From: a virus | Taxonomy: Duplodnaviria > Heunggongvirae > Uroviricota > Caudoviricetes | Length of the DNA: 10,740 bases | Direction: 5' to 3' (one strand) | Virus record (IMG/VR): IMGVR_UViG_2513237361_000016 | In this document: in pieces, positions 3,093-4,226 of the stretch | How the letters are laid out: each line of letters opens with the position of its first letter | Position numbering within the stretch: position 1 is the stretch's first letter | Program-made: the position numbers and the translations under genes | The notes under the pieces: model-generated | Told to the model about the DNA's origin: nothing | The model's database searches: none | The model's input: the letters and a program-made list of their open reading frames with translations, nothing else

Positions 3093-3440
3093 GACCGACC
3101 TCTATTTCCCTGAATTTACGACGAAACTGTTCGAGCGGGCTGAAGCACTCATGCTCATAGCCTTCGCGGAGGTAGATAACTCGTTGTGTTTCCGGCTCCC
3201 AACGAATGACTCTGACGGGCACTCCGTAGTGATCTTTGAACCAGCGGTTAACTTGTCGCAAAGGACTGTCTCCTTCTGCCGGTTGAAATCACCCACAGCC
3301 CACTCAGCAAAGCTGTGGGTTACAATTTCCCTGTCACCTGGTACATTAACTGCATAGCAATACTCCACCTTCGCTTTTCCACCCGGTACAGGAAGCGCAA
3401 TCAGTTGCGAGCGACGGTAGTGTGTTGTTAAACTGTTCAT
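3082..3440 (-). pseudogene. Small phage protein of unknown function, apparently frameshifted
   Basis: N-terminal part (from ATG 3440-3438, ATGA overlap with upstream stop) reads [12 protein letters not shown]...[14 protein letters not shown] in one frame. A protein-like C-terminal part (...[62 protein letters not shown], stop at 3084-3082) is in another frame. The track ORF 3102-3440 has a low-complexity Ser/Ala-rich tail typical of out-of-frame reading. Confidence 0.4.
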
Positions 3441-4045
3441 GCGTTAGTTTCTCCACAGTCACGACACGCCACGGCGCCCGGAGCTGCACACTCGCGGGCG
3501 TCATTACTTTCTGAAATGCAAAAGATTTTGTAGACCAGTGCTGCATGCTCCTGCAGCTTCGAAATTGAGAGATACAGCTCGTCGTTAATTGCTGTCTTCT
3601 CATGCGGTTCCACCACACCGTCTTCGATTGCCGAACGAATCTGTCTGGAATAACTGCCAATCTGTTCAATGACTTCCAGCAGGCGCTGGTTAATATCGGC
3701 GTTGTCCACATCCTCGACGTCAGGAAGAGACACAAAGACGCCATTTGCAGACTGCGCCACAGCGTCAGCAATGAAGTGAGTTCCACCAGCACGTTGCAAA
3801 ATCATTGCCCATCCCAGCGGGAAAATCTGATCGCCATCGGCACGAAGGCGGTTAAATAATGCGTTTTCTGTTACATCCAGCCAGTCAGCTGCTTCAGCGT
3901 AACCACCCGGCAACGCTGCGATAGTTTTTCTGACAGCTTTCACGTACCACTCAGGCTGTTTTTCTACTTTCCAGTGATGCTTACCCACGGTTAGCCTCAT
4001 CGTTCTGTGGTTTCTGTTAATCGATTTATCCATTAGATTTTTCAT
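3437..4045 (-). CDS. CII-like / YdaT-like phage regulatory protein (start uncertain)
   Basis: Long ORF immediately after the Cro-like gene in the early operon. Candidate starts are ATG at 4045, 4033 or 4000, or GTG at 4102; none has a strong SD. The family call rests on position and general resemblance only, without a search. Confidence 0.4.
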
Positions 4046-4226
4046 AAAGCTCAGGTTTAAATGGCAACCGTCCGCAAGTTCTATATGCAGCTTCTGCTGC
4101 ACGTCCTTTTGGAATTAACTGGCCCGGACGGTTTCGCCACTGATAAACGGCTTCAGTTGTTATGCCGAAAAAAGCAGCAACTTTCTCAATACTGCCGAAG
4201 TAGCTTTCGATATCGTCAGTTGTCAT
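4026..4226 (-). CDS. Cro/YdaS-like HTH transcriptional regulator
   Basis: 66 aa with an HTH-like segment (IEKVAAFFGITTEAVYQWRNR). Divergent from the cI-like gene. GGAGG Shine-Dalgarno just upstream of ATG 4226-4224. Confidence 0.6.
   Translation of the reverse strand: MTTDDIESYFGSIEKVAAFFGITTEAVYQWRNRPGQLIPKGRAAEAAYRTCGRLPFKPELYEKSNG

Follow-up and report, generated by a model that had tools for sequence, protein, structure and literature searches.

Activation, tetramerisation and degradation by RseP/FtsH have been demonstrated for CII of phage 186 only (PMC8538670). YdaS and YdaT of prophage CP-933P act as Cro and CII analogues, and YdaS/YdaT of Rac and CP-933P occupy functionally analogous Cro/CII slots in the lambdoid immunity region (PMC8630535, PMC9986795). 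In the e14 prophage of E. coli K-12, YmfM was found experimentally to be a division inhibitor, and over-expression of YmfL left cell length normal, with no division phenotype (bioRxiv 10.1101/2020.11.19.390815). The K-12 small RNA ECS003, encoded in e14, was sequenced (358 mean reads) and seen as a Northern band of ~70 nt (PMC3175480).

The locus described here belongs to a stretch of 10,740 nucleotides from a member of the Caudoviricetes (IMG/VR record IMGVR_UViG_2513237361_000016), the whole of which is referred to as the window. Positions 3437–4226 hold an ordinary Cro/CII-like (YmfL) pair, annotated already, from the switch of an E. coli prophage of the e14/SfII type. As the best explanation of the whole, the two genes probably open the early-right operon of a lambdoid E. 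coli prophage of this type. The Cro/YmfL pair is a known kind of element; the new detail is an antisense RNA over the 3′ end of ymfL. The open reading frame list, profile matches and PGAP together gave the order cI, divergent cro, larger regulator and O-like replication gene, with ymfM, encoding a division inhibitor, between ymfL and the replication gene. The order of a cI-like repressor, a divergent Cro-like gene and a larger regulator in the preliminary description was borne out, and the reading frames that it listed are all present where it placed them. The genes and the intergenic region are as follows.

3102–3440, minus strand: ymfM, an ORF of 112 aa (the SfiC cell-division inhibitor in e14)
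3437–3988, minus strand: ymfL, CII-like regulator of 183 aa with a GTG start (from Pfam/NCBIfam, identity to K-12 b1147 and the start comparison)
4026–4226, minus strand: Cro-like gene of 66 aa, all-alpha P22/N15 Cro type (from Pfam P22_Cro)
4236–4301, no strand: cI-cro intergenic region, candidate control region (from a promoter scan and a repeat finder)
4324–4950, plus strand: cI-like repressor of 208 aa with an HTH_3 domain and an S24 LexA-like autocleavage domain

The cI-like repressor matched Pfam Peptidase_S24 (9e-28) and HTH_3 (1e-10), was assigned to PHROG 4 (transcriptional repressor) and is named 'LexA family protein' by PGAP. Between cI and cro, the promoter scan identified a PR-like promoter on the minus strand (TTGACC-17-TAGCAT at 4281–4253), and the repeat finder identified two operator-like repeats of 17 nt, AAACTAAGTTTTATTAG (4236–4252) and AAACTAAGATTACTTAG (4285–4301), as families D1/I1. 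It is the position of this region that makes it a candidate for control of the switch. Many E. coli chromosomes and phage vB_EcoM-689R6 carry positions 3000–5000 with 100% identity, and matches to this 2-kb region occurred in 2710 of the 5426 complete genomes of E. coli.

The gene at 4226–4026 is, by its sequence, a Cro of the P22/N15 type. Its 66-aa product passed Pfam P22_Cro (PF14549) with 42.8 bits against a cut-off of 30.2, but stayed below the threshold for YdaS_toxin (PF15943; 19.5 bits, cut-off 30). BLASTP gave no alignment between it and K-12 YdaS. Its sequence matches in the PDB were Cro of N15 (2hin, 9e-5) and Cro of P22 (1rzs, 0.02). A Shine-Dalgarno sequence, GGAGGG, precedes its start ATG at 4226. 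The Cro families are related to one another, as YdaS itself also matches P22_Cro.

By its profile score, the larger gene is a distant but significant member of the family of 186 CII. YmfL scored 51.6–52.1 bits against Pfam Phage_CP76 (PF06892, 186 CII; gathering cut-off 26), covering positions 5–141 of the 146 in the profile, against which 186 CII itself scored 163.6 bits. Moreover, YmfL scored 167.1 bits (cut-off 90) against NCBIfam NF041471, the equivalog 'YmfL family putative regulatory protein', fell into PHROG 101, 'CII-like transcriptional activator' (6.5e-71), and was 94% identical to YmfL of K-12 e14 (b1147). Distant representatives of 50% clusters retrieved with YmfL also matched Phage_CP76. 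At E<=1, the Pfam matches of YmfL consisted of Phage_CP76 and a chance match to a DUF, and Phage_CII, the family of lambda CII, was not among them.

The AlphaFold model of YmfL had a mean pLDDT of 68.5, with 84–93 in the HTH domain, and is predicted to comprise an N-terminal HTH (residues 13–80), two long helices (96–161) and a disordered tail (158–183). Structures of 186 CII (6vli/6vpe/6vmh), whose chain identity was confirmed, filled ranks 1–8 of the Foldseek matches of this model in the PDB. These matches were weak (E 0.015–0.25, whole-chain TM 0.35–0.43, for a model with a mean pLDDT of only 68.5), and the target-normalised TM against the 83–84-residue chains of 6vmh was 0.66–0.67. BLASTP between YmfL and 186 CII gave E=13, phmmer with 186 CII matched none of 266 collected relatives, and CII was absent from the results of PDB sequence searches with the YmfL protein and with a profile of 36 YmfL-family sequences. 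Because pairwise similarity is undetectable and the Foldseek scores are weak, the link between YmfL and 186 CII rests on the Pfam profile and the Foldseek ranking. By analogy with 186 CII, YmfL may have the role of a CII-like activator.

The preliminary description had called the pair YdaS/YdaT-type, that is, the families found in Rac and CP-933P, for which the larger protein would be a POU-like HTH tetramer recognising repeats of the type TTGATT-N6-AATCAA. The gene order is that of CP-933P (PMC8630535, PMC9986795), the Cro has the sub-threshold YdaS_toxin match given above, and Cro proteins of the YdaS family precede ymfL in 23 of 34 distinct contexts. YmfL, however, had no match to PF06254 (YdaT_toxin) even at E<=1, while K-12 YdaT scored 44.7 bits; BLASTP between YmfL and K-12 YdaT gave E=11; phmmer with YdaT matched 0 of the 266 relatives; and no entry described as YdaT was among the top 50 Foldseek PDB matches of the YmfL model, which 186 CII led. 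With the Cro passing P22_Cro and not YdaS, an assignment of the pair to YdaS/YdaT is very improbable. YmfL lies outside the YdaT family on HMM, BLAST and fold comparisons, which refute membership of the pair in the YdaS/YdaT families. Thus, homology and synteny support the part of the preliminary description that proposed Cro and CII analogues, whereas its YdaS/YdaT label does not hold for the larger gene. Phage_CP76, the Pfam family passed by YmfL, was also among those it had proposed, so the 221-aa ORF does not fall into a family unrelated to its proposal.

An older annotation of YdaS/YdaT as a toxin-antitoxin module survives in Pfam family names such as 'YdaS_toxin', which are all that speaks for such a function here. 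The toxin-antitoxin reading of YdaS/YdaT was withdrawn on experimental grounds (PMC8630535, PMC9986795), over-expressed e14 YmfL left cell length normal, with an effect on growth unreported (bioRxiv 10.1101/2020.11.19.390815), and the genes of this study sit in a canonical immunity region. We consider it extremely improbable that the pair is a toxin-antitoxin module.

The maximal ORF of the larger gene runs from 4102 to 3437 on the minus strand and encodes 221 aa from a GTG. The start of the CII-like gene had been described as ambiguous and as overlapping the cro stop, which is correct for the maximal ORF and incorrect for the gene. Judged by sequence comparison, the true ymfL is 3988–3437 (183 aa) and its start is no longer ambiguous; 37 nt separate the cro stop (4026) from the ymfL start (3988), with zero overlap. 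The start is assigned to 3988 because this GTG is conserved and stops lie just upstream of it in comparative loci. The comparison covered about 70 Enterobacterales loci, 68 of which were scorable. A GTG lies 5–6 codons before the conserved W of the WKVEKQP motif in 62/68 loci; the remaining scored loci have a GTG 4 codons before W (3/68) or an ATG start (3/68). An in-frame stop is located 1–2 codons 5′ of the conserved GTG in 14/68 loci, including that of SfII. PGAP calls an identical CDS of 183 aa.

Translation of the 221-aa form from GTG 4102, or of forms from ATG 4045 or 4033, would give YmfL an N-terminal extension and couple its translation to the end of cro. The frame is open from 4102, ATG 4033 overlaps the cro stop (AATGGATAA), and databases hold entries of 211–225 aa as well as one 262-aa Cro′-YmfL fusion. 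Against this, the extension is not conserved, the stops before the GTG in the 14 loci interrupt it, and similarity with the e14 and SfII sequences reaches back no further than ~25 nt upstream of GTG 3988. ATGs 4045 and 4033 fall within the non-conserved cro module. Moreover, the YmfL family members of 183–187 aa all start 4–6 residues before WKVEKQP, and none of the PHROG, Pfam and NCBIfam matches begins before residue 34 of the 221-aa ORF. Translation of the longer forms is thus highly unlikely. The comparative data led us to reject the starts GTG 4102 and ATG 4045, 4033 and 4000; the last of these belongs to the Shine-Dalgarno context and is missing in SfII. Two elements precede the assigned GTG start.

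3995–3998, minus strand: GAGG, Shine-Dalgarno sequence of ymfL, read from the sequence, 6 nt 5′ of GTG 3988
4005–4012, minus strand: invariant AACCACAG box in the 5′ UTR of ymfL, 24 nt 5′ of the GTG

Across the loci, a purine-rich AAGGGG/GGAGG is kept at −12 to −7 of ymfL. The AACCACAG box was found at −24 in 56 of 59 distinct loci and carries 1.5–2.0 bits per position, compared with about 0.1–0.5 bits for the flanking intergenic bases; the three loci with an ATG-start ymfL lack it. In 44/59 loci, the box is also one arm of an imperfect inverted repeat, AACCACAG-N14-CCGTGGGT, spanning −24 to +6. The sole direct repeat in the 5′ coding region of ymfL, two copies of GTTTTTCT, falls in conserved codons whose synonymous constraint was not elevated. 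Inspection of the cross-locus alignment by eye revealed no −10-like hexamer at constant spacing from the AACCACAG box, as a pE/pRE-like promoter towards cI would have, and further copies of the box in the window were at chance level (9 found, 8.5 expected). Three other identities of the box were rejected: an IHF site, which fits in only a few loci; a DnaA box, as the conserved T at position 4 is missing; and one arm of an mRNA hairpin sequestering the GTG, as the MFE fold (−6.8 kcal/mol, z −0.69) does not contain that pairing.

The ymfL gene behaves as a mobile module that is found downstream of a wide variety of Cro genes. The genes upstream of ymfL encoded a Cro-type HTH protein in 34 distinct contexts, and among these 34 distinct genes there were matches to YdaS-type Cro for 23, to P22-type Cro for 17 and to lambda-type Cro for 1.

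On the opposite strand, a conserved promoter in the first codons of ymfM drives an antisense RNA of ~70 nt that ends at a covarying hairpin.

3405–3434, plus strand: promoter of the antisense RNA, −35 TTGCGA (3405–3410), 18-bp spacer, −10 TAAACT (3429–3434)
3441–3511, plus strand: cis-antisense RNA of about 70 nt, homologue of ECS003 of K-12 e14

The consensus of this promoter is TTGCGR-18-TAnnnT. The spacer is 18 bp in 58/58 distinct loci while its sequence varies; T1, A2 and T6 of the −10 element are invariant in the 58 loci, at least 55 of which also have TTGCG. No LexA box (cf. lambda pO) was seen by eye in the promoter. The Shine-Dalgarno sequence of ymfM (3451–3454) and the final ~24 codons of ymfL (~75 nt) are complementary to the RNA, whose terminator and most of whose length (about 72 of 71–75 nt) are inside ymfL. 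The terminator hairpin (3473–3502) is followed by AUUACUUUCU, an interrupted U-tract, and the RNA folds with −23.7 kcal/mol (z −2.3). A scan of the window with Rfam 15 at E<=1 assigned no family to the antisense RNA; its sole match, mir-5880 (30.7 bits, cut-off 97), is a spurious one located at the iterons of the replication origin.

In the hairpin, 95.9% of cells were paired and both sides had changed in 7 of 11 pairs; these values were reached in 0/500 shuffles, and slid controls were 35–52% paired. Thirty-six G.U cells were valid only in the antisense RNA, compared with one in the sense RNA. This asymmetry and the weak sense fold (z −0.83) led us to reject the hairpin as an mRNA structure of the sense strand. 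Synonymous-site conservation in ymfL was 1.7–1.9 times that expected at residues 159–177 only, and the same hairpin scaffold encodes at least seven different tail peptides, some of them via frame-shifting indels. We attribute the conserved sequence of the YmfL tail to the antisense terminator.

These features can be assembled into a proposed mechanism. Upon infection or induction, transcription from PR would yield Cro and YmfL, and YmfL, probably as an oligomer, would activate an establishment promoter reading back towards cI, on the model of 186 CII at pE and lambda CII at pRE. The conserved non-ATG start would keep translation of YmfL low. The antisense RNA would pair with the ymfL-ymfM mRNA, masking the ribosome-binding site of ymfM and leaving the ymfL message open to duplex-specific cleavage at its 3′ end, and might in this way hold down the CII-like protein as well as the toxic division inhibitor, by analogy with OOP acting on lambda cII.

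Alternatively, YmfL could be a DNA-binding regulator of the CP76 fold that is not an activator of lysogeny establishment, and the RNA mainly a lock on ymfM resembling a type I antitoxin; YmfL might then have ymfM, replication or late genes under its control, or repress a promoter of the host or the phage. YmfM is toxic, the ymfM Shine-Dalgarno sequence falls within the stretch covered by the 5′ part of the antisense RNA, masking of the ymfM RBS has been proposed by Shinhara et al. (PMC3175480), an establishment promoter was not found near the ymfL start, and in Rac a small RNA gene, kilS, is annotated at a distance of about 175 bp from the division inhibitor gene kilR. However, a gene of the 186 CII family placed between cro and the replication gene sits in the classical CII slot, and the terminator and most of the RNA lie inside ymfL, as those of OOP lie inside cII. 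We therefore regard this alternative as unlikely, though less so than the longer ymfL forms or the YdaS/YdaT assignment.

Beyond the reading of the pair as Cro and a CII-like regulator, the ymfL module is tentatively viewed as a decision cassette, complete in itself and shuffled horizontally, that is constrained chiefly at the level of nucleic acid. This view has three parts that, taken jointly, we rate somewhat below an even chance. First, a single antisense RNA of ~70 nt, conserved in the Enterobacterales, may throttle both the CII-like regulator, by analogy with OOP, and the toxic YmfM, by analogy with a type I antitoxin. Second, the near-invariant C-terminal 'DARECAAPG' of YmfL may be an imprint of the terminator hairpin and not a protein feature. 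Third, the AACCACAG box and the obligatory GTG may form a YmfL operator, a site of the establishment promoter or a translational control element, and this candidate AACCACAG/GTG element may move together with ymfL.

For annotation, the CII-like gene belongs under the 186 CII/YmfL family and not under YdaT, and ymfL should be called from GTG 3988 with 183 aa; the 221-aa ORF and its overlap with cro are artefacts of taking the reading frame at its maximal length. Modules of the YmfL type are very common. The antisense RNA, the GTG start and the upstream box are testable handles on how these prophages set the threshold between lysis and lysogeny and on how they silence the SOS-inducible division inhibitor YmfM. 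Our results also serve as a warning that an overlapping RNA structure can drive a 'conserved C-terminal motif' of a protein family.

Similar to this locus, e14 has the order ymfT(croE)-ymfL-ymfM and SfII the order cro-cII(ymfL). YmfL was 94% (K-12) and about 98% (SfII) identical to its counterparts, and YmfM was 97% identical to YmfM of K-12. The GTG start, the 5′ UTR box and the antisense promoter and terminator are the same here as in e14 and SfII. The cI and cro of this locus, however, differ from those of e14 and SfII, and BLASTP revealed zero similarity to YmfT. Since cI and cro differ while ymfL-ymfM is the same, this locus is a different immunity type that carries the same ymfL-ymfM module.

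Compared with phage 186, CII (PDB 6VLI/6VPE/6VMH) belongs to the Pfam family that YmfL matches. It has an N-terminal HTH domain followed by a helical oligomerisation region, a layout also predicted for YmfL, and heads the weak Foldseek matches of the YmfL model in the PDB, and the order apl, cII and fil (a division inhibitor) parallels cro, ymfL and ymfM. Phage 186 differs from this locus in being P2-like and in having Apl where Cro stands here. At pE, 186 CII acts through inverted half-sites, spaced by two helical turns, near the beginning of its gene; the operator, ATGTTTG-N13-CAAACAT, occupies the first 28 bp of 186 cII and is absent at the ymfL locus.

Similar to YmfL, lambda CII is encoded in the slot between cro and the replication genes, and the two proteins have no sequence similarity. 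Both lambda OOP and the antisense RNA of this study, which has no Rfam family, begin just upstream of the start codon of the next gene, with the −10 element in the first codons of that gene and the terminator hairpin in the 3′ end of the cII-like gene; in lambda, cII ends at 38653, the 5′ end of OOP is at 38675 and O starts at 38686, with an overlap of 52 nt between OOP and cII. Unlike in lambda, the next gene here encodes a division inhibitor, the RNA extends over the Shine-Dalgarno sequence of that gene, and translation of ymfL and ymfM is coupled, as the ymfM ATG overlaps the ymfL stop (ATGA). Thus, the antisense RNA is OOP-like by placement: it is antisense to the 3′ end of a cII-type gene, with its promoter in the next gene and an internal terminator.

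The ORF list and domain scans identified the window as a segment of a lambdoid prophage, in which the following genes were mapped.

4324-4950, + strand: cI repressor of the LexA type
4226-4026, - strand: Cro of 66 amino acid residues, divergent from cI
4102-3437, - strand: maximal ORF of 221 amino acid residues
3440-3102, - strand: ymfM, ORF of 112 amino acid residues
3092-2151: O-like replication gene
Beyond the O-like gene: PerC-like, Dam, LexA DNA-binding domain and RusA genes

The identical order [quoted passage not shown] was annotated by PGAP in NZ_CP028578.2, which agrees with our map; the order of repressor, divergent Cro-like gene and larger regulator given in the preliminary description is real. 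Bases 3000-5000 matched phage vB_EcoM-689R6 and many E. coli chromosomes at 100% identity; of 5426 complete genomes, 2710 had a match. This already annotated element is ubiquitous in E. coli; the useful refinements are a resolved start codon, the correct family and a conserved OOP-like antisense RNA.

The proposal of a YdaS/YdaT-type pair acting as Cro and CII was supported for the two roles, but not for the YdaT family. Cro passed the Pfam P22_Cro cut-off (42.8 bits versus 30.2) and remained below that of YdaS_toxin (19.5 bits versus 30); N15 Cro and P22 Cro were its sequence relatives in the PDB. The larger protein passed the cut-offs of Phage_CP76, the family of phage 186 CII (51.6 bits versus 26), and of the NCBIfam equivalog "YmfL family putative regulatory protein" (167 bits versus 90). 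It also matched PHROG 101, "CII-like transcriptional activator", was 94% identical to YmfL of the K-12 prophage e14 and was nearly identical to the product of a Shigella phage SfII gene named cII in GenBank. YdaT was rejected: PF06254, which K-12 YdaT does match, was not matched at E<=1, and BLASTP against YdaT gave an E value of 11.

The AlphaFold model of YmfL (36 family members) contained a confident five-helix HTH domain at residues 13-80 (pLDDT 84-93), two long helices at residues 96-122 and 128-161 and a disordered tail. The top Foldseek hits among 350,542 PDB chains were eight chains of 6vli, 6vpe and 6vmh, all identified as 186 CII, with weak scores (E value of 0.015, whole-chain TM of 0.35-0.43). 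Pairwise sequence similarity between YmfL and 186 CII was nil. Thus, membership in the 186 CII family rests on the curated profile, with the fold ranking and synteny as support.

For the start codon, 71 YmfL loci were fetched from Enterobacterales genomes, of which 68 were scorable, and in-frame start codons were enumerated at each locus from the upstream stop to the conserved W of WKVEKQP. A GTG was found 5-6 codons ahead of this W in 62 of the 68 loci. A stop codon was only 1-2 codons ahead of the GTG in 14 loci, including SfII with a TGA two codons upstream, which makes an alternative start impossible in these loci. Moreover, homology between the window and e14/SfII began ~25 nt before the GTG, a Shine-Dalgarno GAGG was 6 nt upstream, and family members of 183-187 amino acid residues all began at this codon. 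ATG 4045, ATG 4033 and GTG 4102, which are part of the unrelated cro module, were rejected as starts. Thus, ymfL spans 3988-3437 (183 amino acid residues). With 37 nt between the cro stop (4026) and the GTG downstream of it, cro and ymfL do not overlap, contrary to what was first described. That the conserved start is GTG and not ATG suggests that translation has been selected to be low or regulated. The database also contained P0001, a 262-residue protein with 44 member sequences, in which the first ~40 residues of the window Cro are fused to the frame of the 221-residue ORF. The fusion, ...LIPKDVQQKLHIEL..., corresponds to ~4102-4110 of the window and would fit the loss of 1 nt from cro, in a decayed prophage or by sequencing error; the long out-of-family ORF is thus sometimes annotated as a gene.

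Near the ymfL start, a single non-coding element was strongly conserved, a AACCACAG box at 4005-4012 (- strand), 24 nt ahead of the GTG, which was called invariant (56 of 59 loci) and was absent from all three ATG-start loci. With CCGTGGGT (3983-3990, over the start codon) it formed an imperfect inverted repeat with an offset of 22 in 44 of 59 loci. None of three assignments (IHF site, DnaA box, mRNA hairpin) proved tenable; roles as an operator or a translational element are among the possibilities for the box.

The gene directly upstream of ymfL encoded a small HTH protein in all 34 distinct contexts, with matches to YdaS_toxin (23), P22_Cro (17), HTH_3 (10) and lambda Cro (1). Thus, ymfL is a module that recombines behind numerous types of Cro, true YdaS types among them, which is probably the source of the previously noted YdaS/YdaT association.

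When 66 distinct ymfL genes were compared codon by codon, synonymous codon identity was 0.75-1.1 times the expected value over most of the gene, rising to 1.7-1.9 times at residues 159-177 (window ~3460-3514). The nucleotide alignment contained a GC-rich hairpin with compensatory changes, such as GACGCCCG/CGGGCGTC to GACGCCAG/CTGGCGTC, GACGCCGG/CCGGCGTC or GAGGCCCG/CGGGCCCC. Some variants carried 1-2-nt indels that altered the reading frame, so that one hairpin scaffold yields at least 7 different tail peptides. The analysis points to RNA as the driver of the "conserved" peptide motif at the C-terminus of YmfL proteins. In an alignment of 58 sequences, 95.9% of hairpin cells were paired, compared with 35-52% in slid controls; both sides had changed in 7 of 11 pairs, and none of 500 shuffles reached the observed covariation values. 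Of the G.U cells in the outer helix, 36 paired only in the antisense (+ strand) RNA versus 1 in the sense RNA, indicating that the structure is selected in the antisense transcript. The features of this RNA are as follows.

3405-3410, + strand: -35, from promoter conservation
3429-3434, + strand: -10, from promoter conservation
near 3441, + strand: predicted +1
3473-3502, + strand: hairpin, from covariation
near 3511, + strand: end

The -35 was TTGCG(G/A) in at least 55 of 58 loci, and the -10 was TAnnnT with T1, A2 and T6 invariant in all 58. The spacer varied in sequence but was exactly 18 bp in 58/58 loci. A U-rich tract followed the hairpin on the + strand (ACUCUUUUCUGG in most loci, AUUACUUUCU in the window). 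The RNA is ~70 nt with a fold of -23.7 kcal/mol, and no matching family was found in Rfam. Its e14 homolog in K-12, ECS003, was experimentally detected as antisense to "ymfL & ymfM", with 358 mean reads, a sequence beginning CAUGCGUUAGUUUCUCCAC... and a ~70-nt Northern band (PMC3175480). Complementarity of the antisense RNA extends over the ymfM Shine-Dalgarno (3451-3454) and the final ~24 ymfL codons; the two genes share an ATGA overlap.

The 3' half of ymfM (3102-3440) is overlapped in a different frame by a 59-residue ORF (3082-3261, - strand) with a clear DUF4222 domain (Pfam 8.6e-19, PHROG 1343), also found in L003 at 5002-5181. The overlapped YmfM residues form a low-complexity S/T-rich tail, and the gene after ymfL in other genera often encodes only 59-78 residues. 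In NZ_CP028578.2 (PGAP), DUF4222 is annotated and ymfM is not; K-12 has the reverse, with ymfM annotated and the identical DUF4222 ORF left out. The published ymfM over-expression clone would carry both ORFs. Four to five 15-bp iterons (CAGATTTTGACGGGT) at 2720-2783, within the O-like gene, are presumably the phage origin; an Rfam mir-5880 match on them was spurious. At 685-1011 (- strand), in a nin-like region between Dam and RusA, a 108-residue protein consists of the LexA DNA-binding domain alone (Pfam LexA_DNA_bind 2.9e-19) without the S24 cleavage domain and may be a LexA mimic that cannot be cleaved. Two K88/F4-type fimbrial subunit genes (5585-6418 and 6525-7394, - strand; Pfam Fimbrial_K88 1.6e-64 and 1.5e-48) are between cI and the integrase gene, and the window contains neither an usher nor a chaperone gene. 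Among complete E. coli genomes, none matched >82% of the window at a single place, so such a combination of left-arm cargo is uncommon. Past the integrase gene, 9786-10740 (- strand) encodes a 205-residue protein without known family and a DUF4325 (STAS-like) protein cut by the window end, which may belong to the host flank or to a different island.

A PR-like promoter, TTGACC-17-TAGCAT (4281-4253), lies between two operator-like repeats of 17 nt and would transcribe cro-ymfL-ymfM-O. Similar to the CIIs of 186 and lambda, YmfL would activate a cI-directed establishment promoter, which was searched for near the ymfL start and not located. The antisense RNA would limit both YmfL and YmfM. The local logic is like that of phage 186, where apl is followed by cII and fil, a cell-division inhibitor; here cro is followed by ymfL and ymfM, the latter encoding the division inhibitor known as SfiC in e14 (bioRxiv 10.1101/2020.11.19.390815). 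The geometry of the antisense RNA is that of lambda OOP. In lambda, cII ends at 38653, the 5' end of OOP is at 38675 and the O start codon is at 38686; the OOP -10 is 8-13 nt further right of the 5' end, over the O start codon, and 52 nt of OOP overlap cII. This OOP-like arrangement provides independent support for placing ymfL in the CII slot.
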